In this document: piece after piece, positions 2,819 to 60,794 of the stretch
Numbering within the stretch: position 1 is the first letter of the stretch
Layout: every line of letters begins with the position of its first letter
Source: Minisyncoccota bacterium
GTDB lineage: Bacteria; Patescibacteriota; Minisyncoccia; Phycocordibacterales; UBA9973
Length of the DNA stretch: 64,000 nt
Reading direction: 5' to 3'
Assembly (NCBI GenBank): GCA_017991395.1
Contig: JAGOQQ010000002.1
Coordinates: 61,925 to 125,924, forward strand
Position numbers and translations under genes: made by a program
Notes under the pieces: generated by a model
What the model was told of the DNA's origin: nothing
Databases searched by the model: none
The model's input: only the letters and a program-made list of their open reading frames with translations

Positions 2819-2872
2819 TAAGGAAAATGAATGCGACATCACTGAAAAGAATTTTGATCAGTTAAAAGAAAA

Positions 2873-3181: not shown

Positions 3182-3317
3182 GTAGCTTGTACGGACGAGA
3201 TCCGTTTTTCTCCTTGAGAGAGGCCAGTACGGCTTGATTCAAGAACCAAAACGAGATATCTCCTGTACGAACATTAGCAAAAGGCCACAGGTCAATGGTC
3301 TTTAATATTTTATTTCT

Positions 3318-3503: not shown

Positions 3504-3505
3504 AC

Positions 3506-3591
3506 CTAAAAGCTGAAAGTTTAAAGTTAAAAGCTTAAAGAAGAAGATTCTAAGCTAAAATTTTAAATCTGAAAGTTAAAAGTATGCTCGT
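3506..3591. repeat. tandem array of A-rich heptads (AAAGCTG/AAAGTTT/AAAGCTT...) between rpsN and rpsH; same family at 4039..4084, 7437..7476, 12714..12749 and 16675..16709
   Basis: aaagctgaaagtttaaagttaaaagcttaaagaagaag... recurs at five intergenic loci. Confidence 0.75.
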
Positions 3592-3631
3592 ATTTTTTAG
3601 ATTACTTATTACTTATTACTAATCACTAGTT

Positions 3632-4021
3632 ATGACAGATCCAATCGGAGCTATGCTCAACATGCTTAAGAATGCAGGGAATGCTGGGAAACCAACAATC
3701 ACTGTTCCATTCTCTAAGATCAAATTCGCGATTGCCGAGTGTTTGAAGGCACAAGGTTATGTCGAATCAGTCTCAAAAAAGACTAAGAAAAATCTTCCGT
3801 ACCTTGAAGTAGGTGTGAAGTTCGAAGGAAATGCTCCTCGAATCAACGAAGTAGCACGTGTGTCAAAACCTTCACGAAGAATGTATATGGGTGTAAAGGA
3901 TATCAAGCCGATGAAGCACGGAAAAGGTATGTTTGTCCTTTCAACACCAAAGGGAATATTACGAGATAAGGATGCCCGCAAGGAAATGGTCGGAGGCGAG
4001 GTGTTGTTTAGTATTTGGTAA
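3632..4021 (+). CDS. rpsH: 30S ribosomal protein S8
   Basis: 129 aa with S8-like sequence and position after S14. Confidence 0.9.
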   Translation: MTDPIGAMLNMLKNAGNAGKPTITVPFSKIKFAIAECLKAQGYVESVSKKTKKNLPYLEVGVKFEGNAPRINEVARVSKPSRRMYMGVKDIKPMKHGKGMFVLSTPKGILRDKDARKEMVGGEVLFSIW

Positions 4022-4038
4022 CAAAAAAAGGGGATAGA

Positions 4039-4084
4039 AAAAGCTAAAAGCTGAAAGTCAAAAGCTGAAAGAAGAAATTCAAAG
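4039..4084. repeat. A-rich heptad array (aaagctaaaagctgaaagtcaaaagctgaaagaagaaa) between rpsH and rplF
   Basis: Same motif family as 3506..3591. Confidence 0.7.
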
Positions 4085-4137
4085 CATAAGGCCAGTCGCT
4101 AGAAGCTTAAAAAATAACTATCCGCTAATAAAAATTT

Positions 4138-4671
4138 ATGTCACGTATAGGAAAACAAATCATACAAATTCCACAAGGAACAGAAGTTACTCTTTCAAAG
4201 GGAATTCTTCGTGTGAAAGGTCCAAAGGGTGAACTCATCAAAGAGTTCAAAGACGACATTGTTGTTACAATTGAAAACAACACAGTCGTATTCGTTCCAA
4301 AAGACAACACTCCATTTTCTCGAGCACTCTGGGGAACATATGCTTCACATGTGAAGAATATGATCAAAGGGGTAAATGAAGCTTTCGTAAAGAAACTTAT
4401 TCTCGAAGGAGTTGGATTCAAATCAGAATCAGACGGGAAGACTCTCAAGCTTGCACTCGGATTTTCACATCCAGTACTCGTTCCAATCACAGATGGTCTC
4501 ACTGTCACAGCTGAAAAAAATATTATTACGGTAACTGGTATTGATAAAGAAATGGTCGGCCAGTTCACAGCGGATGTTCGCGCAATGAAGAAACCAGAAC
4601 CATACAAAGGTAAAGGATTTCGATACGATGGCGAAGTTATCCGACGTAAGCAAGGTAAAAAATCAGCATAA
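4138..4671 (+). CDS. rplF: 50S ribosomal protein L6
   Basis: [19 protein letters not shown]...KGPKGEL is an L6 signature. Confidence 0.9.
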
Positions 4672-4676
4672 CGTTT

Positions 4677-5027
4677 ATGAAAATAACACAGAAAAAAACT
4701 CAAAAGCGAATGCGATTGAAAGCAAAGATTCGAACAAAGATCTTTGGTACAGGTGCTACACCTCGACTTTCAGTCTTTCGTTCAAATACATTTATCTACA
4801 CCCAGCTTATCGATGATGAGAATGGTGTTACGCTTGCATCAGCATCTGATGTTAAGATAAAGAAAGGTACAAAAGTAGAACGCGCAGCACAAGTAGGCGA
4901 AGAGCTTGCAAAGAATGCACTTGCAAAAGGAATTTCAAAAATTGTGTTCGATCGAAATGGTTTCAAATATACAGGTCGTGTATTAGCACTTGCAGAAGGA
5001 GCTCGAAAGGGTGGCTTGCAATTTTAA
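4677..5027 (+). CDS. rplR: 50S ribosomal protein L18
   Basis: 116 aa. PRLSVFRSN...YTQLIDD...[30 protein letters not shown]. Confidence 0.85.
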
Positions 5028-19436: not shown

Positions 19437-19826
19437 TGGTGGAGATGGGGGGATTTGAACCCCCGTGCAAGAGTGTTTCTCAAATGTTTCTACATGTGTG
19501 TCGTGTTTCAATGATTTAAATTCATATTCTTGGAAACACGCAAGATAAATATGAATCGAGTTCTATGATTGTCGAAAATGTGGCGAACACTCACATTTCG
19601 TAACCCGATAACATGTTGCCCCTCAATCACTATCGGATGTCGTGACGAGAGACACCGGCGACGCTATTAAGCGAACGCTGGAGCAAAACCAAACTTACTT
19701 GCGTAAGGAGACTTTACTGAACTAAATGTTTTTCCATTTAGAAAATATACGATGATTTACGAGCTATACGTATGTGCTCGACATGCACAAGAGAGAAGTA
19801 AACAATTGTCGATGCCTGGCATCCCC
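19437..19826 (-). ncRNA. ssrA: tmRNA (SsrA), about 390 nt, one-piece
   Basis: Minus-strand 5' end GGGGATGCCAGGCATCGAC and 3' end ACGGGGGTTCAAATCCCCCCATCTCCACCA. The acceptor stem has the G3:U70 alanine identity pair and a T-arm GGGGG-TTCAAAT-CCCCC. The internal tag frame ends ...SKFGFAPAFA with a double stop TAA TAG. It lies adjacent to smpB. Confidence 0.7.
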
Positions 19827-22923: not shown

Positions 22924-22997
22924 CCGTCCTTAGCTCAGTTGGTTAGAGCACAGAGCTTATACCTCTGGGGTCCATGGTTCGAATCCATGAGGACGGA
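22924..22997 (+). tRNA. tRNA-Ile with anticodon UAU (reads AUA)
   Basis: Manual cloverleaf: acceptor CCGTCCT/AGGACGG, D GCTC/GAGC, anticodon stem CAGAG/CTCTG with loop CTTATAC (anticodon TAT), T-arm CATGG-TTCGAAT-CCATG, discriminator A. No encoded CCA. Confidence 0.75.
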
Positions 22998-23046
22998 CAA
23001 ACATAAGAAGCGACACCGTCAGGCGTCGCTTTTTATGTTTGTCCGT
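22984..23046 (+). repeat. ~62 bp direct repeat (tRNA-Ile 3' end plus terminator hairpin); second copy at 23200..23262
   Basis: atccatgaggacggacaaacataagaagcgacaccgtcaggcgtcgctttttatgtttgtccg appears twice about 216 bp apart. Confidence 0.8.
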
Positions 23047-28290: not shown

Positions 28291-28602
28291 TTATTCTTTT
28301 TTCATATCAAGATTTTCGAGCTTGAGTGCCTTGAATCCAAAATAAATTACCGCTGCTACAATTATAAAATCAATAATACTTGAAATAAATGCTCCGTATT
28401 TGATTGACGTCGCACCAATTTCAATCGCCTTGTCCGCGAGATTTACTTTTCCAAGAAGTGCGCCGATGAGGGGATTGATAATGTTGTCGACAAGTGACGT
28501 CACAGTCTTTGAGACAGCTCCGCCAAGAATAAATCCAATCGCGAGTCCAATGACACCTTGTTTTCTAATAAATTCTACAAAACCTGTAAGTTGTTGATTC
28601 AT
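28291..28602 (-). CDS. mscL: large-conductance mechanosensitive channel MscL
   Basis: FVEFIRKQGVIGLAIGFILGGAVSKTVTSLVDNIINPLIG is the MscL N-terminal/TM1 signature. 103 aa. Confidence 0.8.
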   Translation of the reverse strand: MNQQLTGFVEFIRKQGVIGLAIGFILGGAVSKTVTSLVDNIINPLIGALLGKVNLADKAIEIGATSIKYGAFISSIIDFIIVAAVIYFGFKALKLENLDMKKE

Positions 28603-28677
28603 ACTACCTATAGTATATCCTTTCTTTTAAAATACAAAAATACACCATCAGTGTAAATAGTGTATTTTTTGGGAATG

Positions 28678-28899
28678 CTATTTGATTGGATTTTCTCCGC
28701 GAATTATGCGAACGAGGAAAAGTATAACTGCGATAACGAGAAGGATGTGAATAAATCCACCGAGGACATGAAATCCCAAAAATCCGAGTAACCATAGTAT
28801 CAAAAGTATGGTAGCGATAGTTGTAATCATAAAATGAGTTAAGTGTGAAATTGTAAGTAAGTTGACATCGACCAATTGTCTCTGTATTAAGTATACCAC
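28678..28899 (-). CDS. small lmo0937-family-like membrane protein (likely shorter, starting at an internal Met)
   Basis: ILLILWLLGFLGFHVLGGFIHILLVIAVILFLVRIIRG resembles the small GG-containing lmo0937-type membrane peptides. Confidence 0.45.
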   Translation of the reverse strand: MVYLIQRQLVDVNLLTISHLTHFMITTIATILLILWLLGFLGFHVLGGFIHILLVIAVILFLVRIIRGENPIK

Positions 28900-28943
28900 T
28901 TAATGTGGTATTTTTTGAGGTTGTAACTTATTGACGTATATGT

Positions 28944-29552
28944 TCACTTGTGAAATCTGAGGCGTTTGATGGCTTGGTGAATAAGCACGGAGATAATTGA
29001 GACTATGATTAATAGTAGAATTAATGATAAGGCGCGATCCCCAAAATACGACGTGAAAAAATTTCCTGCATACACTCCAACAACACCCCAAATCATAGAT
29101 CCAATAAAGCTGTATATAATGTATCGTTTTGTGTGGACACCGCGGACAGCTGCAAATAATGACGGCGTTGAACGTACCAAAGGTATGAGTTTGCCAAAGA
29201 TTGCGATGAGCGCCAAGTGTCTATCAAAAAGTTCCCACGATTTTTGATGTTTTTCATTTTCCACAATTGCTTTAATCCACTTGAGGTGTTTGAATCGTTT
29301 TGCTATTAAAAATCCTGTCATATCGCCAAGGAAGCTTGCGAGTCCCACTATTGTGCACGCTGTAAGTGGAGCAATAATACCTTTTGCAGATAACCCTCCT
29401 GCAAATATGGCAATCGTACCACCGGGCAGCACAGAGCCAATCACTGGCAACCCTTCCGCAAATGAAAAAAATCCAAGTACGAGCATTTGCCATTCTGTCG
29501 GAATTGTTTCAAGTAGTGAGATTATTGAATTGGAAATAGATGCCATGCACAA
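28944..29552 (-). CDS. DedA/VTT-domain family membrane protein
   Basis: FAEGLPVIGSVLPGGTIAIFAGGLSAKG and overall DedA topology. Confidence 0.75.
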   Translation of the reverse strand: MCMASISNSIISLLETIPTEWQMLVLGFFSFAEGLPVIGSVLPGGTIAIFAGGLSAKGIIAPLTACTIVGLASFLGDMTGFLIAKRFKHLKWIKAIVENEKHQKSWELFDRHLALIAIFGKLIPLVRSTPSLFAAVRGVHTKRYIIYSFIGSMIWGVVGVYAGNFFTSYFGDRALSLILLLIIVSIISVLIHQAIKRLRFHK

Positions 29553-29653
29553 ATCTTACCATGTAGACTTGTTGTACAAGAAGAGGTATGTGTCGTTTTA
29601 ATGCGGTGTCTATTGTGCAAAATTCGAACATTTTTTGACGAAAATCCTAAAAA

Positions 29654-29872
29654 CTAATTTTCTGGATAGTGTTCTAAATAAAACTCACGAAGTATTTCAC
29701 TCTTACTTTCATAATTCTTATCTTGTTCTGAAACTGCAATAACTCCCTCCAAATATTTTTTTGCTTTTGGCTCATCGTATTCCTTCATAGACAGAAAAAT
29801 TTCTACAGCTTCTTTAATGGGTAAGTATTTATTCTCAATTGGTGTTGGGCTTGATTCAAAGTTTGTATTCAT
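29654..29872 (-). CDS. hypothetical small protein
   Basis: 72-aa ORF with no motif. Confidence 0.3.
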   Translation of the reverse strand: MNTNFESSPTPIENKYLPIKEAVEIFLSMKEYDEPKAKKYLEGVIAVSEQDKNYESKSEILREFYLEHYPEN

Positions 29873-30090
29873 AAGTATGATTATATCATATAAAAATGAT
29901 CACTTTTTTCTTTGCGGAACCGGCGAGATTCGAAACTTACAGTTTCAGTACACCTTTTCGATTTGTTTGGAGAAATCTCCTCACAAACAACGAAAAGCTC
30001 TTCGAATCTCTCTCGGAAGTACCGCAGGGTACTTCCTCGTCTCCGCGAACAAAAATGGTCCGGAATGATTCCGGACTCATTTTTTGTAAT

Positions 30091-30293
30091 CGCGGTGTGT
30101 ATTGAACGAAGTTCGAATGTATTTTGAATTGAATCCTGACGACCAATGATGCGCGCCTCGGACACGCTCGCGGACTCGCGTGTGCAAAAACCAAAAAATT
30201 TCCTTGCATTTTTCTCGCGTCTCCTCCCCCCACCCCTCCGCCGCGAAGCGGAAAAAGAAATGGAAAGGAAATTTTTGGTTTTGCTTCGCCGTT
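30091..30293. repeat. inverted repeat arm A (~203 bp) with an internal long palindrome (aaaccaaaaaatttccttgcatttttc...gaaaaagaaatggaaaggaaatttttggttt around a GC-rich core)
   Basis: Reverse complement of 32270..32474. ORF-track translations on opposite strands are identical over about 65 aa (AKQNQKFPFHFFFRFAAEGWGEETREKCKEIFWFLHTRVRERVRGAHHWSSGFNSKYIRTSFNTHR). Confidence 0.85.
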
Positions 30294-30573
30294 TCAGTCT
30301 CCGAAAAGAGCAATCTTATTTTAACATTTTTGTTTGCTCTTTTCTCCACCCTCACGGCGACCGAGGCGCTTCCTCTCCGCGTTTGGTGGTGACTCTAAAC
30401 TCCGTGGCTTCGACGGAGAAAGTGCCAACTCATCAAAGTGGAGCCTCGCCATACAAAATTCTTTAAGGAATGGCGAGGCGCAAATCCTATTATGTGTTTG
30501 CCCCACCCTCCCGTGCGCACACATCATCCCCGCCGTTTTGGGAGAATATTATAAAACGGCGGGGATGGCTCCC

Positions 30574-31317
30574 TTATTTAAAATTCATAGTCCACTTATC
30601 TTTACCTTCCCAACCATCAAACATTTTTCCATGTCCCATTTCTCGGCTCAGTTTTTCAATACCAGAAAGTAAATCTTGTTGAGTTTTAAGGTCTGCTGTT
30701 TCTAAAATATGTTTTATTTTTTCTACAAATTCTTTGGGCGACCAAGGCAAATTTTCCAAAGGATACTTTTCTAGTTCTTTTTGAACATAACCGAGAAATG
30801 GTCTATGCCTGCCATTCATGGCAAATACGAGTGTAAGTAAATCAAGCATGGAGTTTACTGCCTCCAAATGAGCACCAAACATATTATTATTGCGAATACA
30901 TTTTACAGAGCGATATACACCATTTACATACCCGTCAATCCACCAATCAATAAATTTATTCAATTTATCTGGCGGTATTTGACCTTTTTCCTTAACCAGT
31001 TTTTCCAATTCTCCGTCTGTCCTGTCTACAAGAATTTTGACATGAGCGTAATTATATCTGTCCCATGATTCTGGGCTTTCCCAGCCAGCAAATGTTTTGA
31101 AATCAGAGAAAGAACGCACTGACAAATCCACATTATCTAAAGTCATCTTTTCGTATTTTTCGTGGATTGTGTTAGCGGCTTCGTCTTTAATAATCATTAC
31201 AGCATCATAATCGGAATGTTCATTTTCAAAACCCTTGCCACGCGAACCAACAAGAATGAAGCCGACAACGTCCTCGTTTTCTTGTGCCTCTTTAAGTATT
31301 TTTTCGTAGTCGTTCAT
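30574..31317 (-). CDS. ANT(6)/AadK-like minimal nucleotidyltransferase (putative aminoglycoside adenylyltransferase-family protein)
   Basis: N-terminal NTase motif VGFILVGSRGKGFENEHSDYDAVMII (GS...DxD) and a helical C-terminal domain. The layout resembles the ANT(6) N-terminal motif (GSRANINIPKDEFQDYDITYFV in ANT(6)-Ia) as recalled from memory. Confidence 0.5.
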   Translation of the reverse strand: MNDYEKILKEAQENEDVVGFILVGSRGKGFENEHSDYDAVMIIKDEAANTIHEKYEKMTLDNVDLSVRSFSDFKTFAGWESPESWDRYNYAHVKILVDRTDGELEKLVKEKGQIPPDKLNKFIDWWIDGYVNGVYRSVKCIRNNNMFGAHLEAVNSMLDLLTLVFAMNGRHRPFLGYVQKELEKYPLENLPWSPKEFVEKIKHILETADLKTQQDLLSGIEKLSREMGHGKMFDGWEGKDKWTMNFK

Positions 31318-31321
31318 AGAT

Positions 31322-31981
31322 TTATTTTAACATTTTATTAGCTAATAATAATTTTTGAATAAGTTCCGAAATATTTTTATGGACAGGCCAAATTTTTTGT
31401 ATTTCGGCACGCATATCTTGATGTTGAAGGTATCCCTCATCTCGTTTTCCATTCATTAGATCGGAAAACTCAAGATTCAAAAGTTCCGTCAAAGATTCTT
31501 TGATGTCGTTATACGCCAATTTTGAAAGTCCCTCGTCTAGCAACTTTTTACCGAAAGTGTGCCATGTGTAGAAATGTAAAAGTTCGTGCATTATCGTGTT
31601 GTTGGAAAATTCCGAGCCGATTCTGACGAAAAAATAGTTTTGCTCGATGTTGTAGGTACAACGCTCGTTGTGGGTCAAATAAACAGTAATAATCGGGGCT
31701 GGGTAAGAAATGCCGAATAACTTTTCCACTCGCTCAATGAAAATGGGTTCGGCAATTTTCCATCTTGCCTCTACAGCAACAATTTCCTTGTTAGCGTCGA
31801 AACCACTTATTTTGTCTTGTTCCCCAATAAACGCCTTGACCTTTTCCGTTTCAAAATTTTCGCCGTATTTTTCGGAAAACGAAATTTGAAACTTTGTTGG
31901 TTTCTTACTATTCGTCGCGTTCGTTCCCTTGATAAAGTTTTCAACGTCCTTATCTATATTGTATGCAAAATGTAATTTCAT
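31322..31981 (-). CDS. HExxH-motif protein (putative ImmA/IrrE-like zinc metallopeptidase), function unknown
   Basis: IMHELLHFYTWH contains HExxH. It is co-oriented and adjacent to an XRE-family HTH gene, as in ImmR/ImmA modules. Confidence 0.35.
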   Translation of the reverse strand: MKLHFAYNIDKDVENFIKGTNATNSKKPTKFQISFSEKYGENFETEKVKAFIGEQDKISGFDANKEIVAVEARWKIAEPIFIERVEKLFGISYPAPIITVYLTHNERCTYNIEQNYFFVRIGSEFSNNTIMHELLHFYTWHTFGKKLLDEGLSKLAYNDIKESLTELLNLEFSDLMNGKRDEGYLQHQDMRAEIQKIWPVHKNISELIQKLLLANKMLK

Positions 31982-31985
31982 AAAT

Positions 31986-32198
31986 TTATTTCAAAAGTTC
32001 ATCACTTGCAACTCCTAACGCTTGAGCGATTTTCTCAATGGTTGCGAGTGTTGGATTTCCTTTTCCACTCTCAATATTGCTCATTTGAGCGCGATCAAAA
32101 CCGAGAGCACGACAAATGTCGCCTTGCGACATTTTCTTTCGCTCTCGTATGCGCTTTATGTTTCTTCCCAACTTAATTGACGATGTTTTCATATCCAC
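31986..32198 (-). CDS. XRE-family helix-turn-helix transcriptional regulator (70 aa)
   Basis: LGRNIKRIRERKKMSQGDICRALGFDRAQMSNIESGKGNPTLATIEKIAQALG is a canonical HTH_XRE. Confidence 0.75.
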   Translation of the reverse strand: MDMKTSSIKLGRNIKRIRERKKMSQGDICRALGFDRAQMSNIESGKGNPTLATIEKIAQALGVASDELLK

Positions 32199-32269
32199 AG
32201 TTTATATTCTAGCAGTTTGTTGTGTCTTATATCAATAATGTGATATATTACAATAGATGAGAATGTTGA

Positions 32270-32474
32270 TAACGGCGAAGCAAAACCAAAAATTTCCTTT
32301 CCATTTCTTTTTCCGCTTCGCGGCGGAGGGGTGGGGGGAGGAGACGCGAGAAAAATGCAAGGAAATTTTTTGGTTTTTGCACACGCGAGTCCGCGAGCGT
32401 GTCCGAGGCGCGCATCATTGGTCGTCAGGATTCAATTCAAAATACATTCGAACTTCGTTCAATACACACCGCCA
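32270..32474. repeat. inverted repeat arm B (reverse complement of 30091..30293), directly fused to 32471..32587
   Basis: Sequence identity, plus shared ORF-track peptides on opposite strands. Confidence 0.85.
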
Positions 32475-32587
32475 GAAAACGAAATCGGATTTTAGAGCCG
32501 AAATGGGGTCGCGCCGAAGGCGCGACACTAGGGCATTCCCCCCGCCGAATCCAGAATCCAAAAGGGTTTTCCACGCTCCGCGTGGCT
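32471..32587. repeat. second inverted repeat: reverse complement of 33994..34110, which abuts the tRNA-Ser 3' end
   Basis: Peptide RKRNRILEPKWGRAEGATLGHSPRRIQNPKGFSTLRVA is encoded on opposite strands at both loci. Confidence 0.85.
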
Positions 32588-32609
32588 CGTCGTTTGCCAA
32601 TACAATTCT

Positions 32610-34160
32610 ATGAATAATCAAACCAAAAAGTTTTTCATATATACTCGCAAGTCTACGGACGACAAAGACAGACAAGTCCGCAGTATTTCCGACCAGTTGA
32701 GTGAGTTAAAAGAGTTAGCGCTGAAAGAGCAACTGGAAGTGATGGATGTCTTTGTCGAAAAGCAGACCGCCAAAATACCAGGTCGTCCCGTGTTTAATGA
32801 AATGATGACGAGAATGGAAGCGGGCGAAGCGTCTGGTATTTTGGCGTGGCATCCCGATAGACTTGCTCGCAACTCGGTAGATGGAGGAAAAATCATCTAC
32901 CTCGTTGATACTGGAGTAATTTCAGAAATGAAATTCCCAACTTTTTGGTTTGATCCGACACCGCAAGGCAAATTCATGCTCTCAATCGCTTTTTCGCAAT
33001 CCAAGTATTATGTGGACAATTTGAGTGAAAATATCAAGCGCGGACATAGAAACAAAGTGAAGGAAGGGATATGGCCTCAAATGTCTCCGATTGGATATGT
33101 GAACGAGAAAGGAAAAGGTATTGTGCCACATCCTGAACTTTCGATTTTAGTAAAAAAGACATTTGAGGCATATGCAACTGGAAACTTCACTTTGCGGGAA
33201 GTCCGCGACAAATTTAACGCGCTTGGATTGAAAAGAAAAAGCGGTAGAGAGCTTGCGGTGTCGAATTATCAAAAACTTCTCAAAAATCCTATTTACACTG
33301 GTCTCATGAGGTATAACGGAGAGATTTTTGAGGGAAAGCACGAACCGATTATTTCAAAGAAACTTTTTGATTCTGTTCAAGAAGTGATGAGTCGAAAATC
33401 TAAACCTCATTCCAAAGGTTTGAAACCATATATTTATCGGGGATTTTTCCGTTGCGGAGAATGTGGATGTTTTATAACTACCGAGCAACAAAAAGGTCAT
33501 AACTATTTGCGATGTACCAAACGGAAAAATCCTTGTGAGCAAAAATATGTTCGTGAGGAGCTCATCACTTCTCAAATTCAAGAGGAAATCAAAAAAGTTT
33601 CTTTGCCTCTCGATTGGACAGAATGGATGATTGCCGAAAATGCAAAGGATCGGCAATCGGAAGTCCAATCAAGTGAGATTTTTTCTCAAAAAATACAAAG
33701 TAAAATTTCTCTTTTGGATGCAAAAATGGAGAAGCTGATGTCTGCGTATTTGGAAAGTGCATTTTCGCTTGAAGAATATCGTGATGCTAAAAGTGCCATG
33801 GTTAACTCAAAACAGCTTCTCAAAGAGAAATTATCAGCTTTTGAGAAAAAATCTCATAATCGGTTCGAACTTACCGAAAAGTTTTTGAAATACAATATGG
33901 AATTGGCAAACGACCGAACAAATGAGGAAAATACTCATTTGTTCAAAAAAGTCGGTTCGAACTTTCAAATTAAGGATCGAACCGTACTTTTTGAGCCACG
34001 CGGAGCGTGGAAAACCCTTTTGGATTCTGGATTCGGCGGGGGGAATGCCCTAGTGTCGCGCCTTCGGCGCGACCCCATTTCGGCTCTAAAATCCGATTTC
34101 GTTTTCTGGCGGAGACGGAGAGATTCGAACTCTCGAGGCCATTACAGCCTGCCTCCTTAG
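32610..34160 (+). CDS. large serine recombinase (resolvase/invertase N-terminal catalytic domain, recombinase domain, zinc ribbon, coiled-coil). The annotated 3' end runs through the repeat and tRNA-Ser, so the true stop may be earlier or the C-terminus repeat-derived
   Basis: FFIYTRKSTDDKDRQVRSISDQ (catalytic Ser in YTRKS), GILAWHPDRLARN, recombinase-domain residues, and a Cys cluster RCGECGCF...CTKRKNPC. Confidence 0.8.
   Translation: MNNQTKKFFIYTRKSTDDKDRQVRSISDQLSELKELALKEQLEVMDVFVEKQTAKIPGRPVFNEMMTRMEAGEASGILAWHPDRLARNSVDGGKIIYLVDTGVISEMKFPTFWFDPTPQGKFMLSIAFSQSKYYVDNLSENIKRGHRNKVKEGIWPQMSPIGYVNEKGKGIVPHPELSILVKKTFEAYATGNFTLREVRDKFNALGLKRKSGRELAVSNYQKLLKNPIYTGLMRYNGEIFEGKHEPIISKKLFDSVQEVMSRKSKPHSKGLKPYIYRGFFRCGECGCFITTEQQKGHNYLRCTKRKNPCEQKYVREELITSQIQEEIKKVSLPLDWTEWMIAENAKDRQSEVQSSEIFSQKIQSKISLLDAKMEKLMSAYLESAFSLEEYRDAKSAMVNSKQLLKEKLSAFEKKSHNRFELTEKFLKYNMELANDRTNEENTHLFKKVGSNFQIKDRTVLFEPRGAWKTLLDSGFGGGNALVSRLRRDPISALKSDFVFWRRRRDSNSRGHYSLPP
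33994..34110. repeat. inverted repeat arm C (partner of 32471..32587), ending at the tRNA-Ser CCA end
   Basis: See 32471..32587. Confidence 0.85.
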
Positions 34161-34195
34161 CAAGGAGGTACGTTAGACCACTCCGACACGTCTCC
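34107..34195 (-). tRNA. tRNA-Ser (anticodon GCU), class II with a long variable arm and encoded CCA
   Basis: Reverse complement GGAGACGTGTCGGAGTGGTCTAACGTACCTCCTTGCTAAGGAGGCAGGCTGTAATGGCCTCGAGAGTTCGAATCTCTCCGTCTCCGCCA. Anticodon stem CCTCC/GGAGG with loop TTGCTAA, T-arm AGAGA-TTCGAAT-CTCT, discriminator G. Confidence 0.85.
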
Positions 34196-34299
34196 AGATA
34201 ACATAAAAACAATACCATATTTAGTCTCTTTTTCCCAAAAAATCTACCTCTTAAAAATCATAGAAAAAAAGCACAATATATGATATATTCTATTCGCAC

Positions 34300-34386
34300 G
34301 GAGGATTGGATGAGTGGTTTAAATCAACGGTTTACTAAACCGTCGTTCCTTAATTGGAACCGTGAGTTCGAATCTCACATCCTCCG
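34300..34386 (+). tRNA. class-II (Ser-like, G73) tRNA with anticodon loop UUACUAA, i.e. an apparent ACU anticodon; possibly aberrant or a pseudo-tRNA
   Basis: Acceptor GGAGGAT/ATCCTCC (7 bp). 3-bp D stem GAT/ATC. Anticodon stem ACGGT/ACCGT. Variable-arm hairpin GTTCC-ttaatt-GGAAC. T-arm GTGAG-TTCGAAT-CTCAC. Discriminator G. Confidence 0.55.
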
Positions 34387-34388
34387 CA

Positions 34389-34426
34389 AAAAAACCAAAC
34401 TCAGATTATCTGAGTTTGGTTTTTAA
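34389..34426 (+). terminator. intrinsic terminator (aaaccaaactcaga-ttat-ctgagtttggttttt)
   Basis: Perfect 14-bp stem followed by a T-run. Confidence 0.7.
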
Positions 34427-34509
34427 AATTTTGACAAAAAAATAATTTTATTGACTTATTGCGTAAACGTTTCGCTTCAGAAGAACACGTTGACTCGTAG
34501 TTTGTCAAA

Positions 34510-35076
34510 TTGGTACTATTAAATTCTATGATTACAACAATGCCTTATGACGTTCCATTGTATTCTCAAATAAGTGATATTTCATCCGTTGCATGGCAAC
34601 AAAAAGGATGTGGTGTGGCTGATGTGGCAATGATTGTAGAATTCTACAAGCCAAATACTACGACCGTACAAAAAGTTCTCGAAACAGCACTTGCGCAAGG
34701 CGCATATCAAAAAAATGTTGGGTGGAAACATGCGGGTCTTGCGGCACTTGCTTCAAAATACGGTCTCGTCGGAAAGACAGTGGATTTTTCTACGTATTCA
34801 AATGATTCAGCATTGAAAAATTTCAAAAAAGAAGTAGATGCGGGTCCGGTAGTGGCTTCAATTCGTCGCGGATTCAATCCAAAAAGTCCATATGGACACC
34901 TCGTGGTGATCACTGGATATGATGACAAAGTCGTGTACTACAACGATCCGGGAAAAAGAGACGGAAAAAAGTCCGTACTAATTGCAGATTTCATGAAAGG
35001 CTGGAAAAAAAGATTGATTGTTATACGTCCACCTGCAGAGAAAAAGGAAATTGTAAAAGTGACTTACTCGTACTAA
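34510..35076 (+). CDS. peptidase C39-like (papain-fold) domain protein
   Basis: VPLYSQ...GCGVADVAMIVEFY...GHLVVITGYDD gives the Cys/His layout of Peptidase_C39_2-like domains. Confidence 0.55.
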   Translation: MVLLNSMITTMPYDVPLYSQISDISSVAWQQKGCGVADVAMIVEFYKPNTTTVQKVLETALAQGAYQKNVGWKHAGLAALASKYGLVGKTVDFSTYSNDSALKNFKKEVDAGPVVASIRRGFNPKSPYGHLVVITGYDDKVVYYNDPGKRDGKKSVLIADFMKGWKKRLIVIRPPAEKKEIVKVTYSY

Positions 35077-35092
35077 TTTTAGCTTTCTAGAT

Positions 35093-36976
35093 TTAAGGTG
35101 TTTGTGTGCCCACTAAGCATACTTTTTGCCATGGTCTATAGACACTGTGAAAGTTTTTATCTTTCTTTGTTCCGTCTTTGTACAAGATAGAATACAACAC
35201 ATCGGTGGTGATGCCATCATGAGGACTCTCTATGCATTTGGTTTGTCCAATTTTCAAATCTGGTGTTGGTATGTATTTTGCTGGAGGTGCAGGAATTTTG
35301 TTGTATATTTTTGGTTCTGAAATTGTGACCGTGCGACCATCGCTATGACCATAGAGTTCCATTATTACTTCAGTACCTTCTACTCGTGCTTGAAGTAAGA
35401 GATAGCCCTCTGTGTCATTTGTAAATCGAAAATCAGGATGTGGACCATATATTGTGGCATCAAGTCCTGGCGGATCATAATAGTGAACGACAAATTTGTG
35501 ATTCATTCTCTCTGTTATGGGAAGTCCCGCATCAAGCGCAACACGAAAAAGAGTTGTGGCGATTTGGCACAATCCACCACCAAATTCCTTTGCGGTGGTG
35601 TTTTCTTTGATCACTGTTTCTTTTACGTAGCCTTCTTTTTCAGTCACCGCACCAATCGATTTGACTGTTGAAAATTCTCCACCAGGTGGAATAAGCATTC
35701 CATTTATTGCTCCTGCTCCTATTGTTATGTTGTGTGCACGATCAGCACTACTACCTTTGAAGCTTGTGCGCACTTCGCCAACAAGGTCATTGATATAATA
35801 TTTTTCTACTGTTTCTTTCGTGACACGTGGCTCAATTTCGATTGTTTCCACAGGAATAGAAAACGTACTACTTTTTGCATCATATGTCGCGGTGGTATCT
35901 TTTGTGTAGGTTTGTGAGTCTGGTGATTCTGGATTTACCAAATAACTTATTTGAATTTCATTAAATATTTTTTCTAAATCATTTCGTACTTTTTCAGCAT
36001 TTACTGCCTGACCACTTTTCCCCTTGGATATCTCTACAAGTTCACCTTCGATCATTTGGAACCTACTGTTTTTTCTTGGGTTGTTTATGTATTTAGCGAC
36101 TGTACCATTCATGTATCTATCGAATATACTCGGATCAATGCTTATGAGACGCTGTTCGTTTAATGTCAGCCACTCTACAAATTTTGGACTCGTCACTTTC
36201 CATTTTTGACCTTTGTAGGTGAATACCACATTCATTTTTTTAGCAATATGTTCTGCGAGTCCTCGAAATTGCTCAAGGTCTGATTTGACCACAGAAGGAA
36301 TGTCATCATACACAGAATGCTCACTGGGTGAAATGTCGAGAGTGGCTATTTTTGTTTCAAGAGATTTTAGTACCTCATCCATATGGACACTCTTTCCATT
36401 TTTTTCTTGTGTGATCGAAAGTGTATTATTTGAAAACGTGAATTGAGCAGGAATTTTTTCCTCAACAAATGGCAACATTTCATGATTGATGAGTGATGTG
36501 ATTGCGTCGTGTTGGATGCTGTTTGCGAAAGTGAAATATTTTTTTCTAAAAAGGAGTGATATTTTGTGCGCACTATTTTTAATCAAAGAAGGTGATCGTC
36601 CGTACATGAATGCTTCGTTGACGGTGCGTTGCCAGTCTGCAATCGTGAGATATTCGACGGATGTATCAGAAGTGAGTCCTGTATAAGAAACAGGAATTGT
36701 GATCTTGCGCTCTTCCTCGCCCATGTCGAAATATACAGAAAGCCCATCTGCTTCAAGAGAGGCAATTCGTTCGCTAAAAATAGTTGCGACTTCAGCCTCT
36801 GTGAGTCCGCCTGCGTATACATTACCGACATAAATGCCCGGGTAGAAGCGATCTTTGTACTTTATTTGGAGAACTATAAGTGAAATGATTCCGGCAAGTA
36901 GGCACACCGCAAGAAAAACACCTACTTTGAAATAAGATTTTTTTCTAAAGTATTCCAATGTGGAATGCTTTATCAT
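35093..36976 (-). CDS. VanW-family protein (N-terminal TM anchor)
   Basis: GGGLCQIATTLFRVALDAGLPITERMNHKFVVHYYDPPGLDATIY matches the VanW core. Confidence 0.7.
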   Translation of the reverse strand: MIKHSTLEYFRKKSYFKVGVFLAVCLLAGIISLIVLQIKYKDRFYPGIYVGNVYAGGLTEAEVATIFSERIASLEADGLSVYFDMGEEERKITIPVSYTGLTSDTSVEYLTIADWQRTVNEAFMYGRSPSLIKNSAHKISLLFRKKYFTFANSIQHDAITSLINHEMLPFVEEKIPAQFTFSNNTLSITQEKNGKSVHMDEVLKSLETKIATLDISPSEHSVYDDIPSVVKSDLEQFRGLAEHIAKKMNVVFTYKGQKWKVTSPKFVEWLTLNEQRLISIDPSIFDRYMNGTVAKYINNPRKNSRFQMIEGELVEISKGKSGQAVNAEKVRNDLEKIFNEIQISYLVNPESPDSQTYTKDTTATYDAKSSTFSIPVETIEIEPRVTKETVEKYYINDLVGEVRTSFKGSSADRAHNITIGAGAINGMLIPPGGEFSTVKSIGAVTEKEGYVKETVIKENTTAKEFGGGLCQIATTLFRVALDAGLPITERMNHKFVVHYYDPPGLDATIYGPHPDFRFTNDTEGYLLLQARVEGTEVIMELYGHSDGRTVTISEPKIYNKIPAPPAKYIPTPDLKIGQTKCIESPHDGITTDVLYSILYKDGTKKDKNFHSVYRPWQKVCLVGTQTP

Positions 36977-37042
36977 CTATTAAGTATATGCCTATATTAG
37001 CAAGACTGCTAATTGGCAACTATACGCAAGAGGGAATACGAC

Positions 37043-37291
37043 CTATTTTTTACTCCACCGTGGTGCAAAACGTACAAGCCATGTGAAGAATGTTGCTTTG
37101 ATTGGATTGATGCCAATACCACGCATTCCTTTGTAGACGAATTTTTTGAAACCCTTCAAATCGCCTTCGTAGGTGAATTTTCCATCTTTGAAGCAATAGC
37201 TACAATATCTACTGTCTTCTTGTACACCAGGATCTTTTGAAAATGGCATGAGACAGCTTTGGCACTGGTCTTTGCATTGTGATTCTTTCAT
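37043..37291 (-). CDS. small zinc-ribbon domain protein
   Basis: CKDQCQSC...RYCSYCFKDGKFTYEG: two CxxC pairs. Confidence 0.4.
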   Translation of the reverse strand: MKESQCKDQCQSCLMPFSKDPGVQEDSRYCSYCFKDGKFTYEGDLKGFKKFVYKGMRGIGINPIKATFFTWLVRFAPRWSKK

Positions 37292-56764: not shown

Positions 56765-59725
56765 ATGAAAAAAATATACAAAAGTATAATCAAGCTGTGT
56801 GTTGTATGTGCGATGTGTATGAATGGTGGTGATGTGTTCGCATTGACTGATCTTAGTGGCGGAAGTGTAATGCTTACCTCAAACACTACGTGGACACTTT
56901 CTGGTAGTCCGTATGTTGTTGATTTTGTGTACATTGATAACGGGGCAGTACTGACACTCGAGCCTGGTGTAATTGTAAAATTTACATATGGTGGGTCTGA
57001 TCAAGCTGCTCAGATAAGTATTGAAGACGGGGCAATTGTTGCAAACGGAACTGAAGCAAGTCCGATTATTTTCACTTCATACAATGATGATGTGGGAGGT
57101 GACACAAATGGTGATGGAAATTTGAGTGAACCTGCGATGTACGATTGGAATGGAATATATTTTTCAAATACTGAATCATCAGCCATGTTATTTACTGTGT
57201 TTAATAATGCACAAATAAAGTATTCAGAATTTGGATTGAAAATAAAAGAGGGAATTCTGACAAATATAGATTTCTCATATAATAACGTAGCATTGTTTTT
57301 GTTCGGTGGAGATCCAATGACAATTAGTGATATGGCTTTTGCTTCAAATGGTGTTGATTTAAAACTTGGCGGGAATAGAGAACTCTCACTTTCTGGATAC
57401 ACTTTTGATACTAGTGAAATCGCCGTTGTGACTCAAAATAATTCTCATTTTATTTGTGATGAGTGTAACTTTTTGGGAGGATATTCTGCAATTATGGTGG
57501 GTGGTGATTCGGATCTTACACTTACAAATTCGTTGATTGAAAACTATACAAATGCTGGAATATTTAATCAAAGTGTTTCGCCTACTTTCAGTCCTGAGCC
57601 AGGAGATAATGAAATAAACATTTCTAATAGTGAAATTAGAAACAATGATATTGGAATAGAATTTGGTTCGGATGGATATGGTGTAATAGTAAACAATTCA
57701 ATTCATGACAATGTGACATTCGGAGTGAAGATTCTTGATTTTGATTCACCAGCCACGGTTGACCTCAGAAACAATTGGTGGGGCCATGCCTCTGGTCCAC
57801 ATGAAGTCGTGGGGAATCCCAGTGGACAAGGTGACAATCTGCAAGTGCAGTTTATTCCGTATTCTCCATGGACAGGACAATTGTCACCTATGACTTTGCA
57901 TCAATATAAAATGGACGGCGAATTTGAATTGTCAGAAGGTAACACAAACATGAGTGACAAATTTGTATTCAAAGCGAAAGGTTCACTTGTGGCAAGTCCA
58001 AGAAAAATTGAAGTTGAAATAAAACCGCACGCACAAAGTTTTGATGGTCTGGTTACCCATCTTTCAGATTTTCAATCAAACACTGATGAGCTGAGTGTGG
58101 ACGTGAGTCCGATTGTGAAAGGTTCGTACAAATGGCGTGCGAGAATTGTTGATTCTGGCGGAGGTGAGGGGAACTGGATTGAATTTGGAACTACGCAAAG
58201 CGGAGTGGATTTCATTGCAAAACCAATTCCGCACTATACGCAAAATCAGTCCGATTTCCCAGAACCTGGATTTTCTGAGGAATGGTATAGAGAAGCTTAT
58301 GCAAATGGTAAAAGTACATATGAAGGTGGATGTGGATATACAATTAGAAGTTGTGGTTGTGCGTTAACTTCTTTAGTTATGTTGTTACGATTTCATGAGA
58401 TTGAAAATATACAAAACGAAGATATAAATCCTCTGTCATTAAATAATTGGTTAAATCAAAACAATGGTTACGGTCCACGTGGCGATGTATTGTGGTATAC
58501 CATGGCAAAGTATACAAACAATCAATTTAAAATTGTAGATTCAGTCAATTACGATACATACTTAGCAACTCGTGACAATTCGAAGCTTGACCAATATTTA
58601 GCACAAGGTTTTCCTGTGATTGCACGAATGAAGGGACAGCGAAAATTAACAGGGCAAAGTGGTGGAGGACATTTTCTGGTAATAGGAAATAAATTAAATG
58701 ATACGTATGAAGTAAAAGATCCATCACAATACAATACCACAACACTCAGTCACATTCCGGAATCAAATGAAGATCATGTAAGAACATACTTTAATGGTTA
58801 TGATGGTTTACGTTTTTTAAAACCTGTATTAAACAGTGTTACAGAAGCATACACTGCTGTTCATATGGCATCACCGGCAGATATTTTAATAACTGATTTG
58901 CAAGGCAGACGTGTAGGGCGAAATCCTATAACAGGAGAATATTTTCAAGAAATCCCGGGAAGTTTTTATGTTTCCGATAGTGTTGACGATGCGGAAAAAG
59001 AGAATCTTGAGAATTTTGACCATGACCAAAAAACAGCATACATTCCAAACTTAGGGAATGTATATGATCTCGATGTGTTTGGCACAGGTGATGGCTCGTA
59101 TAGATTGGATATAGAAAAAGTACCTGTAACAGGTGCCGAACAAACATTTGTATACGAGGGCGAGGTGGTTGAAAATGAAGTACAACCTTTTTCAGTTCTT
59201 TCTACAAATTCAGAAATACATATTAAAGATGAAAAGATTGATACAACTCCACCATCGTTGACACTTGCATTAAATGGCAACGAAGGAAAAAATTGGTTAT
59301 TGGAAGGAGTTGACGAGAATGCGCCGGTGACAAAAAATGTTGATGTGCATAACCATATATTTTCAGTTGAAGACAGATATGGAAATACTGCAAAAATAGA
59401 TTTTGATGTTGTGCCCGGATACAGAATGCCTGCGATTGGCAAACTCAATCTTGAGCTCAATCGTGTTACAATAAATGACACAGAACAGATGATTCCATAT
59501 ACATGGATTAGTTATGATTGGAGTAACAATGGAGGACCAGGAGTGATGTTCAAGCAGGTGTATTCATCGAGTGATGGATATGTTCAGGCAGTATATACCC
59601 AAGCAACAAATCAGACGGCAGTTACCATAATGAATGGAACAACAGTACAAAATCTCACATTTCCAAAATTAAAATTAATTAAGATACACATTTCACCAAA
59701 TGGACAACCAAGCTATCAACTATAA
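56765..59725 (+). CDS. large secreted protein with a right-handed parallel beta-helix (PbH1 repeats) and a central papain-like/C39-like peptidase domain
   Basis: Signal-peptide-like N-terminus. PbH1-like repeats (SNSEIRNNDIGIEFG, NNSIHDNVTFGVKI). Peptidase-like Cys (GGCGYTIRSCGCALTSLVMLL) and His (GGGHFLVIGN). Confidence 0.55.
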   Translation: MKKIYKSIIKLCVVCAMCMNGGDVFALTDLSGGSVMLTSNTTWTLSGSPYVVDFVYIDNGAVLTLEPGVIVKFTYGGSDQAAQISIEDGAIVANGTEASPIIFTSYNDDVGGDTNGDGNLSEPAMYDWNGIYFSNTESSAMLFTVFNNAQIKYSEFGLKIKEGILTNIDFSYNNVALFLFGGDPMTISDMAFASNGVDLKLGGNRELSLSGYTFDTSEIAVVTQNNSHFICDECNFLGGYSAIMVGGDSDLTLTNSLIENYTNAGIFNQSVSPTFSPEPGDNEINISNSEIRNNDIGIEFGSDGYGVIVNNSIHDNVTFGVKILDFDSPATVDLRNNWWGHASGPHEVVGNPSGQGDNLQVQFIPYSPWTGQLSPMTLHQYKMDGEFELSEGNTNMSDKFVFKAKGSLVASPRKIEVEIKPHAQSFDGLVTHLSDFQSNTDELSVDVSPIVKGSYKWRARIVDSGGGEGNWIEFGTTQSGVDFIAKPIPHYTQNQSDFPEPGFSEEWYREAYANGKSTYEGGCGYTIRSCGCALTSLVMLLRFHEIENIQNEDINPLSLNNWLNQNNGYGPRGDVLWYTMAKYTNNQFKIVDSVNYDTYLATRDNSKLDQYLAQGFPVIARMKGQRKLTGQSGGGHFLVIGNKLNDTYEVKDPSQYNTTTLSHIPESNEDHVRTYFNGYDGLRFLKPVLNSVTEAYTAVHMASPADILITDLQGRRVGRNPITGEYFQEIPGSFYVSDSVDDAEKENLENFDHDQKTAYIPNLGNVYDLDVFGTGDGSYRLDIEKVPVTGAEQTFVYEGEVVENEVQPFSVLSTNSEIHIKDEKIDTTPPSLTLALNGNEGKNWLLEGVDENAPVTKNVDVHNHIFSVEDRYGNTAKIDFDVVPGYRMPAIGKLNLELNRVTINDTEQMIPYTWISYDWSNNGGPGVMFKQVYSSSDGYVQAVYTQATNQTAVTIMNGTTVQNLTFPKLKLIKIHISPNGQPSYQL

Positions 59726-60794
59726 AAAATACTTGTTATTTGTTGTGATTGTTGGAATTTTCGCACACGGTGGATTGTATTTTCTATACCATAATATTGA
59801 GCCTCAAAATCAAGAAAAGTCACAGAATACAATTATTACTGAAAACAAACAAGTAAGTAATAAAAATTTAATTTGTCGTGACCAAATTAAGTCACTGAAA
59901 TGGGATGATAAGGTAAATGTATATAAAAATCAAAGCTCTGGTGATATGAGAGTTGAAATTACTGACCTACGCGATAAGAAGTATGATTATGTGATTAAAG
60001 ATGTGAATGTAGGTTCTATCGATTCATTCATTGAAACAGATTGTCATTTTTATACAACGAAATTCTTAAATGTGAAAAGAGAGTCATCTAAATTAACATA
60101 TGACGCTTCGTTATGGCAATATACTTATGATGGCACTGGTAAAAAGATCTTAGATTTTACAGAACGCATTGATATAAGTAGTATTAAATTTATATATAGC
60201 CTTGGCTACTCGGTGGATCCAAAGGAAAAATTTATCGCGCTTTCAAATAGACATTCCTCAAACGGAGAAATGTATCTGTTTATCAAGAGAATGGCAACAC
60301 TTGAAAATGTTTCTCAAATAAATCTTAAAAAAGATTTATTTGAGAAACATCCTGAGAAAAGAGGTGATATTGCCTTCGAGAATGGATCATGGTCTACCGA
60401 TGAAAAATTTTTCCTCGTTCCGTTTAGTGATCAAGCAAACATAACTGGCTATATAAGGGTACAATTAACTGATGGCCACTTCGATGTATTTGATGTGTAT
60501 CCAGGTACAATGGTGGGGGATAAGATAAATGTTGATTCAGGTTGGACAACATTTGATGATGGACCTGAATGGTCTGGTTGGTCTGACATTGAAGAATCAA
60601 ACAGAGATGAATGGAGAGCACAGGGTATCAAGATCAACTTTGGAATATACAATATATATACAAAACAAAAAATAGTCATTGAACAAGTGGACGACACGAC
60701 ACATTGGCATGAACCACGTTGGATTGATGACAATACACTAGAGTACCTTTCTATCACAGGTGAAAAAAAGATATTTATTGTTAGTACTAATTAG
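59700..60794 (+). CDS. membrane-anchored hypothetical protein, paralog A
   Basis: N-terminal TM. Shares blocks with the next ORF (SLWQYTYDGTGKKILDF vs SLWRYTYDGVGDKLIDL; C-terminal G[IV]YNI[YF]TK[QE]KIVI). Confidence 0.4.
   Translation: MDNQAINYKKYLLFVVIVGIFAHGGLYFLYHNIEPQNQEKSQNTIITENKQVSNKNLICRDQIKSLKWDDKVNVYKNQSSGDMRVEITDLRDKKYDYVIKDVNVGSIDSFIETDCHFYTTKFLNVKRESSKLTYDASLWQYTYDGTGKKILDFTERIDISSIKFIYSLGYSVDPKEKFIALSNRHSSNGEMYLFIKRMATLENVSQINLKKDLFEKHPEKRGDIAFENGSWSTDEKFFLVPFSDQANITGYIRVQLTDGHFDVFDVYPGTMVGDKINVDSGWTTFDDGPEWSGWSDIEESNRDEWRAQGIKINFGIYNIYTKQKIVIEQVDDTTHWHEPRWIDDNTLEYLSITGEKKIFIVSTN

Follow-up and report, generated by a model that had tools for sequence, protein, structure and literature searches.

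A 4.0-kb large serine recombinase element at the 3' end of tRNA-Ser in Patescibacteria, with an attachment site that is crossed by the recombinase reading frame and has an inverted duplicate

We analysed a 64,000-nt stretch of a Minisyncoccota bacterium (positions 61,925 to 125,924 of contig JAGOQQ010000002.1, assembly GCA_017991395.1; hereafter the window), which derives from a metagenome-type assembly; sequencing runs of its source samples (SRR11088409, -410, -447, -448 and -468) contain unitigs that are 100% identical. Positions 30096-34108 are an element inserted at the 3' end of a tRNA-Ser(GCU) gene by a large serine recombinase (LSR). On our reading this is a 4.0-kb integrative element, inserted by attP x attB recombination and belonging to a large family in which the open reading frame (ORF) of the recombinase crosses the attachment site attP, itself present in an inverted duplicate; comparing the window with its relatives, we put the probability of this reading at about 0.85. 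A preliminary description of the window had proposed a compact site-specific LSR element at this tRNA in a genome of the candidate phyla radiation (CPR) type; empty sites bear out this central idea, while the ends of the element were misplaced there and two of its four genes misassigned. The sites and genes concerned are, in window coordinates:

29907-30091, minus strand: arm C of attB and attR, host DNA outside the element, kept in the empty-site contig
30092-30293 and 32271-32474: repeat pair A, inverted and perfect, 202-204 nt, from self-comparison
32469-32588 and 33993-34112: repeat pair B, inverted and perfect, 120 nt, from self-comparison
30092-30293, minus strand: attR, left end of the element, made of the core (GCGG on the plus strand, 30092-30095) and the inverted arm A (A'), 100% identical to the reverse complement of 32271-32474
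32271-32588, plus strand: internal intact attP, inverted with respect to attL and attR, with arms identical to attR (A) and attL (B)
32610-34160, plus strand: LSR gene (516 aa), from Pfam domains, motif and PHROG match
33993-34112, minus strand: attL, right end of the element, made of the inverted arm B (B') and the core (GCGG, 34109-34112) adjoining the tRNA, 100% identical to the reverse complement of 32469-32588
34107-34195, minus strand: tRNA-Ser(GCU), the target gene, from ARAGORN and Rfam (tRNA, 52 bits)

Written in the orientation of the tRNA, the three junctions in the window (tRNA|B at 34109-34112, A|B at 32469-32472 and A|C at 30092-30095) have only the bases CCGC in common, which is the attL/attP/attR pattern and so predicts an attB of the form tRNA|C. 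The preliminary description had suggested looking for such an empty site in related genomes, and we found it in two related metagenome contigs, L009 (NCBI GCA_020050275.1; identity to the window 96.6% over 6.8 kb) and L012 (ENA ERZ2271328). Both join window position 34109 straight to 30095, and the element is therefore delimited to 30096-34108 (4013 bp). The attB of these contigs consists of the tRNA half of attL and the C half of attR, and the internal site (arm A 32271-32468, core CCGC 32469-32472, arm B 32473-32588), located between the divergent genes of an XRE-type regulator and the recombinase, consists of the A half of attR and the B half of attL. In the alignment of the four sites, attL and attR are thus the hybrids of attP and attB joined at a short core, without a long target duplication. 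The final bases of the tRNA gene (..CCGC-CA) are completed by arm B.

DNA beyond the left junction belongs to the host. Arm C is found in L009 at 96.6% identity and, at 97.5-98.6%, in L011-L014, the remaining related contigs in which it is covered, and it opens with a terminator-type hairpin (30058-30076, terminator scan) that is plausibly the native terminator of tRNA-Ser(GCU). The preliminary description had taken a degenerate tRNA copy near 29925 as the other end of the element and had bounded the latter at 29918-34195. Such a copy does exist (TTCGAATCTCGCCGGTTCCGCA, 29907-29934; 22 of 28 bases match tRNA-Ser, with 0 such matches in 20 shuffles), and its match to the target tRNA is as good as that of the neighbouring real tRNA-Ser. 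It sits 160 nt outside the left junction, in DNA retained by the empty-site contigs, and is host DNA and no att repeat. The "classic" duplication of a tRNA 3' end invoked in that description is a tyrosine-integrase pattern and does not apply to junctions that share CCGC only. We note that GGAGACG, the 5' acceptor sequence of tRNA-Ser(GCU), occurs ~140 nt before the tRNA-like fragment. The host segment 29907-30091, which lies between the element and a 72-aa gene, could represent a decayed tRNA or be left over from an older event.

The LSR contains the Pfam domains Resolvase (PF00239, E = 2e-18, residues 9-154), Recombinase (PF07508, E = 2e-15) and Zn_ribbon_recom (PF13408, E = 1e-7), so a 516-aa LSR does lie beside the tRNA as first described, and it matches the PHROG_95 integrases (E = 7e-79). 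Named phage integrases are distant (SprA/YokA, E = 9e-7; A118, E = 6e-6), and the best NCBIfam matches, CcrB and XisF, stay far below threshold (95 vs 900 bits for the Ccr cut-off). Residues 1-461 have more than 7500 homologs at E <= 1e-10. The best 120 homolog clusters are 82-100% identical and yet 455-647 residues long; the catalytic motif IYTRKST is kept in 119 of 120 homologs.

While the body of the gene (32610-33992, 461 aa) is conserved, its 3' end is composite. The next ~38 codons lie in B', through which the frame is open in ~115 of the 120 homologs, ending in FWR on the core (TGG CGG, the reverse complement of CCGCCA). In the window, the core is occupied by the codons W-R, and the 16 codons that end the gene read the tRNA in antisense and form a non-native tail, in agreement with the earlier remark that the C-terminus runs through repeat DNA (33993-34112) into the tRNA. 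Past the core, 74 of the 120 homologs carry a tRNA-antisense tail (R-x-R-D-S-N-...) and 13 a conserved peptide encoded by A'; the other 33 stop a few codons past the core or are otherwise unclassifiable. In 51 distinct A' arms the frame is open and reads R-C-[VL]-L-[DN]-[EK]-V-R-x-Y-F-E-x-N-P-D-D, with the stop codon lying 17-21 codons past the core, and the variability of this tail peaks at codon position 3 (entropy 12.5 / 9.1 / 16.3). The first ~54 nt of A' in the attR of the window encode this native C-terminal tail and stop codon. Because the A' frame encodes a conserved tail, the native LSR gene comprises the body, B', the core and the start of A' (~517-520 aa), and the internal A|B duplicates, as an inverted spare, the 3' end of the gene together with its downstream region. 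Judging from these reading frames, integration through the site in the LSR frame swaps the native last 17-20 residues for a tail encoded by the antisense strand of the tRNA.

Comparison of 128 B arms across loci revealed an 8-bp GC hairpin (32520-32545 and 34036-34061 in the window) that keeps its pairing by compensatory changes (GCGCC/GGCGC, GGCGC/GCGCC, GGCAC/GTGCC), with a three-base loop that, with a single exception among the variants seen, has the form G-N-A (GAA, GCA, GTA, GGA). The compensatory changes also alter residues of the encoded tail, which implies that arm B is also constrained at the nucleic-acid level. Arm B has, in addition, an invariant distal hairpin (CCACGC-TCC-GCGTGG).

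A single scan of the GTDB species genomes yielded 192 relatives, the best 80 of which (L015-L094) were analysed as loci. The LSRs of these 80 are 79-95% identical to that of the window and come from metagenome-assembled genomes (MAGs) labelled Kaiser-, Nomura-, Uhr-, Peri-, Moran-, Levy- and Shapirobacteria, Saccharibacteria and others, and the element family appears to be almost confined to Patescibacteria. Loci with MAG labels such as Actinomycetota or Gammaproteobacteria have a GC content of 33-50%, so these labels are probably binning errors and we do not claim cross-phylum transfer. In ~65 of the 80 loci LSR residue 461 is followed, after 114-117 nt, by the 3' end of a tRNA-Ser gene on the opposite strand; the anticodons gct, cga, gga, tga and act, i.e. 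all five isoacceptors seen, are among the targets, and the tRNA junction in these loci is invariably ..CCGC|B. Elements in L018, L071 and L074 adjoin neither a tRNA-Ser gene nor an arm A; they share the motif GG(G)TAC(C/T)TAAC...CCGC, possibly another conserved target.

When the loci with full coverage, drawn from the 192 relatives, were compared with themselves, about 20 showed the arrangement A' ... A|B - LSR - B', with 96-100% identity between the repeats of a locus. A' is ~200-275 nt long in most loci (77-100 nt were detected in three), B' is 120 nt long, and the spacing from A' to A|B is 1.5-6.4 kb. The same layout is present in two records titled chromosome-level ("chromosome: 1"; OY969413.1 and OZ246398.1). 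Many contigs stop 40-400 nt upstream of the LSR start, as expected from repeats longer than the assembly k-mer. The B arms fall into at least five sequence types between elements and are identical within one element, which implies copying or gene conversion. In full, the backbone has the order A' - N - [cargo operon] - A|B - LSR - B', where N is a conserved non-coding segment and the cargo operon is mostly headed by a small helix-turn-helix (HTH) regulator.

Some of the loci contain a more diverged LSR (31-58% identical):

L036, 8632-11994
L087, 8713-10375
L023, 4882-8276
L043, 12403-13887
L061, 529-4415

Inverted repeats bracket the diverged LSR in L036, L087, L023 and L061. In L036 and L087 these LSRs are ~42% identical, the repeats are 132-140 nt long, and the second LSR adjoins tRNA-Ala(ggc) and tRNA-Glu(ttc), respectively; in L061 the repeats surround a second LSR at 2900-4288. 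An A-type repeat pair was also found in L036 and in L023, the latter without a nearby tRNA. No flanking inverted repeats were detected around the diverged LSR of L043, which lies beside tRNA-Ser(gct). Diverged LSRs are sometimes in tandem with, or nested in, a tRNA-Ser element, and 191-nt direct repeats bracket one element in L023.

A minority of loci is arranged differently. L099 has the order tRNA-Ser|B - LSR - B'|A' - N and an LSR with its native tail, and L095 has the same order up to A', where the contig ends. Going by the order of its arms, the L099 layout is the outcome expected from integration via the upstream attP copy, with the circle linkage LSR - B'|A' - N preserved. In L096, attP-like sites lie on either side of the LSR gene. 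The LSR of L032 and L033 lies between two different tRNA-Ser genes, which is the outcome predicted for a reaction of the spare attP with another tRNA-Ser. To find circular forms, we searched the JGI metagenomes for a B'|A' pattern tied to the 3' end of the recombinase gene; of the 12 loci obtained, three or four are LSR-B'|A' junctions and one, L099, is a clear alternative isomer. In L098, L100, L101, L104, L106, L107 and L109, B'|A' is preceded by the last bases of the LSR gene without the gene body, and these look like remnants of decayed elements.

The proposed mechanism is conservative site-specific recombination between attP (arm A | CCGC | arm B) and attB (tRNA | CCGC | terminator arm C), which would yield attL (tRNA|B) and attR (A|C). 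The LSR frame crosses the attP core and ends 17-21 codons into A', so that integration at this site replaces the native tail. As a second, inverted and identical attP lies just upstream of the LSR gene, two inverted attP sites would be present in the excised circle, and one of them stays intact in the integrated element. Excision to such a circular intermediate is presumed, as is preferential use of the attP at the 3' end of the LSR gene, and replacement of the tail may damp LSR activity after integration. The spare attP could be a second donor for another tRNA-Ser gene, a source of a full-length gene after inversion, or a regulatory binding site. A bolder proposal, which we regard as possible and decidedly speculative, is that the element is a self-rewriting switch, in which tail loss locks the element without a repressor or a recombination directionality factor (RDF), and the spare attP allows the gene to be restored and can react with another tRNA-Ser gene. 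If this were true, inverting the 1.4-kb gene body would restore a full-length LSR, the spare attP would permit an alternative integration mode, and the family would drive chromosomal inversions between tRNA-Ser genes in CPR genomes, with loci of the L032/L033 type as products.

Several observations weigh against the two-attP integrative element. The B arms of the minority isomers (L095, L099, L032, L033) are only ~81% alike, which a simple model of a circle with two attP sites does not predict. The LSR 3' end is beside the tRNA in ~85-90% of loci; equivalent attP copies would give the isomers equally, so this bias needs an added assumption: the downstream site is preferred in cis, or selection disfavours elements retaining a full-length LSR. 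No RDF was identified in the element or the backbone; no gene for a small protein was seen to recur in the backbone, and RDFs are too diverse to be excluded by that. The JGI pattern search gave no complete circle, nor was there read-level evidence of excision; short contigs cannot reveal a circle, because its junction equals the internal attP sequence over 323 nt. Finally, the crossover dinucleotide is narrowed only to within CCGC (CC, CG or GC). Intersecting the repeat overlaps had pointed to GC, which we rejected as loci differ by 2-nt shifts and only CCGC is safe.

The inverted repeats of the window could in principle have arisen in assembly, if the integrated, excised and empty forms present in a mixed population were joined into chimeras and the true element has a single attP; short-read contigs do break at repeat edges, and the window comes from a metagenome-type assembly. 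Mis-joining at shared k-mers, however, cannot create the arrangement in which both ends of the LSR segment abut the same (distal) end of arm B. The design moreover recurs in ~20 independent assemblies from different studies and assemblers, the two chromosome-level records among them, and around LSRs only ~42% identical, and an artefact is therefore very unlikely. We give just as little credence to an element that spans from the tRNA-like fragment (~29925) to the tRNA between direct repeats of the tRNA 3' end, in the style of tyrosine-integrase islands, and that is run by an ICEBs1-like ImmR/ImmA switch. The fragment does match the tRNA 3' end above chance, and an XRE gene is indeed followed by a gene for an HExxH protein; the empty-site contigs nevertheless contain 29907-30095 and place the insertion point at 30095/34109, which refutes that boundary, and a serine enzyme makes no long target duplication. 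The HExxH protein, for its part, is not PF06114 and does not have the IrrE/ImmA fold, and conjugation genes are lacking.

That the LSR is mainly a resident invertase, with the cargo and LSR segments as phase-variation switches for defence genes and with mobility rare or lost, would fit the perfect inverted repeats that bracket both unique segments, the occurrence in nature of both LSR orientations relative to the tRNA, and the position of the internal site in a divergent promoter region. We consider it improbable all the same, given the presence/absence polymorphism at a precise site. Targeting of five tRNA-Ser isoacceptors by near-identical LSRs, in MAGs labelled as many candidate phyla and classes, requires transposition and horizontal spread, and the orientation in L099 is explained by use of the other attP and not by simple inversion, because N follows A'. 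The phage-like matches (the LSR to PHROG_95, the XRE protein to phage repressor families) could be taken to mean that the locus is a decayed prophage or the remnant of a phage satellite that kept its integrase and repressor. We see very little chance of this: one relative alone (64% identical) was found among 2.9 million viral contigs (IMG/VR), compared with 192 in genomes, no virion, terminase or replication genes are among the Pfam families listed for the cargo modules of 19 loci, and the size (1.5-6.4 kb) and backbone are uniform.

In comparison with known systems, the element resembles those of phage-type LSRs (A118/LI Int, SPbeta SprA, phiC31, Bxb1) in its three-domain enzyme and in attP x attB recombination at a very short core. 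It differs in that the LSR is distant in sequence and targets a tRNA 3' end, the element is 3-8 kb long and free of phage genes, its attP is embedded in the recombinase ORF and has an inverted duplicate, and no RDF was found. Like SCCmec with its Ccr LSRs, it is a small to medium non-conjugative island with highly variable cargo, for which an LSR uses the 3' end of a single conserved housekeeping gene as the insertion site; unlike SCCmec, it has a single recombinase, a tRNA-Ser target instead of rlmH, an internal inverted attP, long perfect inverted repeats and CPR hosts. Islands at tRNA genes (Islander-type) and the tycheposons of Prochlorococcus are similar as cargo islands at tRNA genes, with an integrase clade tied to the tRNA and cargo for defence or adaptation. 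They mostly use tyrosine integrases, leave a displaced tRNA fragment as a direct repeat and in many cases carry replication genes, whereas the present junctions share a core of 4 nt, no replication gene is seen and there are two inverted attP sites. Of the 937 integrative elements catalogued in the tycheposon study, 27 use a large serine recombinase (bioRxiv 10.1101/2020.12.28.424599). ICEBs1 also has an XRE regulator followed by an HExxH protein near its recombinase gene; here the HExxH protein is not of the ImmA family, the enzyme is a serine and not a tyrosine recombinase, and the element has four genes in 4 kb and no transfer genes. The module logic of ICEBs1 seen by the preliminary description is thus a weak analogy.

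The integrases of SSV1-type fuselloviruses are archaeal tyrosine recombinases whose attP lies inside the integrase gene, and integration splits that gene in two. An attachment site in the recombinase ORF, such that integration alters the gene, is common to both systems; here, by contrast, only the last 17-20 codons are exchanged and an inverted spare of the 3' end is kept. In the yeast 2-micron plasmid with its FLP recombinase, two inverted recombination sites separate two unique segments, and in Tn3 the res site lies between tnpA and tnpR. The analogy with both is one of layout only: the circle predicted here also would have two inverted sites and two unique segments, and the intact site lies between divergent genes, one of them the recombinase. 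Unlike in those systems, there is here no homology and no evidence of replication function, amplification or autoregulation, and we take these parallels as leads only.

Between the left arm and the internal site, the element carries segment N and three genes:

30294-30573, unstranded: segment N, conserved GC-rich non-coding DNA, beside A' in more than 20 loci
30574-31317, minus strand: nucleotidyltransferase (NTase), 247 aa, cargo; G24 S25 ... D36 D38 invariant
31322-31981, minus strand: HExxH protein, 219 aa, cargo; H132-E133-x-x-H136 invariant
31986-32198, minus strand: XRE-type HTH regulator, first gene of the cargo operon; PF01381, E = 4e-14

Segment N (~280 nt) is 80-97% identical at the nucleotide level in more than 20 related loci and ends in a bidirectional terminator-type hairpin (~30525-30567). 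RNAalifold on 21 copies of N gave 15 pairs with 1 compensatory change, so that a structured RNA is unsupported, and an Rfam scan of 28500-35500 at E <= 1 found just two tRNAs and chance matches over them, with none on A, B or N. There are long and short variants of N with a repeated GTGGTARCTCTAA motif, and the breaks of unitigs from several samples within N (at 30340, 30354 and 30450) hint at variation between strains. Small ORFs beside A' were considered as genes and judged non-coding (TTG starts, odd composition).

The XRE repressor gene foreseen in the preliminary description is confirmed by its Pfam match. The best PADLOC match of the protein is the "Control_protein" of restriction-modification (R-M) systems (1.6e-15), and it is 94% identical in L015, whose cargo is a Fic protein; the regulator belongs to the conserved backbone of its subfamily. 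A promoter-like site lies upstream of it (32235->32206, promoter scan). For the two other genes the earlier assignments stood in part. The protein in the ImmA position does have an invariant HExxH motif, but its family has no Pfam match, PF06114 included, so that membership in ImmA (COG2856 / PF06114) does not hold; fold comparison gives a zincin metallopeptidase that matches general zincins, not IrrE/ImmA. All named members of this family are from Patescibacteria/CPR MAGs. The NTase, described as ANT(6)-like, does carry the GS...DYD motif and the two-domain fold of antibiotic NTases (an N-terminal pol-beta NTase domain and a C-terminal helical bundle), but the fold is closest to ANT(4') and not ANT(6), and at E <= 0.01 only PF01909 and PF18765 are matched, with PF04439 below threshold. 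The motif and fold are thus shared with ANT(4')/KNTase, LinB/Lnu and ANT(6), from which the NTase differs in being only 8-15% identical. Some homologs 72-77% identical to it have precomputed PF04439 matches, and the NTase is partnered with other NTase-fold or zincin proteins, to which it is fused through GrpB in relatives. Sequence and profile searches of the cargo proteins against PDB returned nothing useful, and fold comparison alone was informative.

Neither the HExxH gene nor the NTase gene of the window has a counterpart in the 80 related loci, and we therefore regard both as cargo and not as backbone. A survey of 93 cargo ORFs from 19 loci found R-M systems of HpaII, DpnII and EcoRI type, other methylases, ThsB-TIR, AAA_13, Fic, LexA-like repressors and RadC; the 25 commonest Pfam families, from which absences were read, include no replication, conjugation or virion genes. 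The repeats are GC-rich, as first reported (A 0.495, B 0.579, and N 0.507, vs 0.393 for the window and 0.37-0.39 for the genes of the element). The tetranucleotide check suggested there places the element among the most deviant 4-kb windows (distance 0.281 vs 0.175 +/- 0.039 for same-size windows; 1/120 as far). Other 4-kb windows as deviant as the element lie in 1-5000 and 57500-62500. The two perfect inverted repeat pairs had been noticed as repeat DNA and left unresolved.

To our knowledge, the mobile elements of CPR/Patescibacteria have barely been characterised, and we know of no serine integrase element that pairs an attP inside the recombinase ORF with an inverted spare copy. The present family gives these bacteria a precisely delimited, apparently active mobile element, with attB, attP, attL and attR at base resolution and hundreds of species. 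It is a variant of serine-integrase islands that is widespread in CPR bacteria and apparently undescribed, with an unusual attachment site, self-overlapping and duplicated, and the combination of an ORF-embedded attP with an inverted spare suggests a new way to control directionality or stability. The family also serves defence cargo (R-M, TIR, Fic) as a vehicle, in genomes that are described as poor in defence systems. The LSR with its ~50-bp sites could serve as an integration tool in CPR bacteria, whose genetics are very limited, and as an addition to the LSR toolbox; its natural target is conserved across all tRNA-Ser genes seen. We found no description of this element family in the searchable literature on serine recombinases in CPR/Patescibacteria, at tRNA-Ser and on related topics, and a 2025 survey of genomic islands in Patescibacteria nowhere mentions recombinases or tRNA targets (PMC12455944). 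The type I R-M island which that survey (PMC12455944) gives for MAG nzgw456 is not the LSR element of that genome (L044), which has HpaII-type R-M cargo.

An exact-protein look-up gave no match for the 516-aa recombinase or for the ORF of a C39 peptidase, and the flanking proteins were matched. This peptidase ORF belongs to the other side of the target locus, where ARAGORN finds a tRNA-Ser(ACU) at 34300-34387, divergent to tRNA-Ser(GCU) and with an odd anticodon for AGY codons. The divergent pair of tRNA-Ser(GCU) and tRNA-Ser(ACU) genes is also found in L009, L019 and L031-L033, and the ACU tRNA is itself a target of the family in L031 and L033. Downstream of tRNA-Ser(ACU), 34388-37043 encodes a C39-like peptidase and a VanW/PG_binding_4 protein; the corresponding place in L009 (410-1590) is taken up by DUF1801 and three small ORFs. 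The segment is thus a second variable region at a tRNA-Ser 3' end, without a recombinase and without A or B arms. The left part of the window contains a tmRNA gene (19437-19826, tag GKTFSSVKSPYASKFGFAPAFA) and tRNA-Ile(TAT) (22924-22998).

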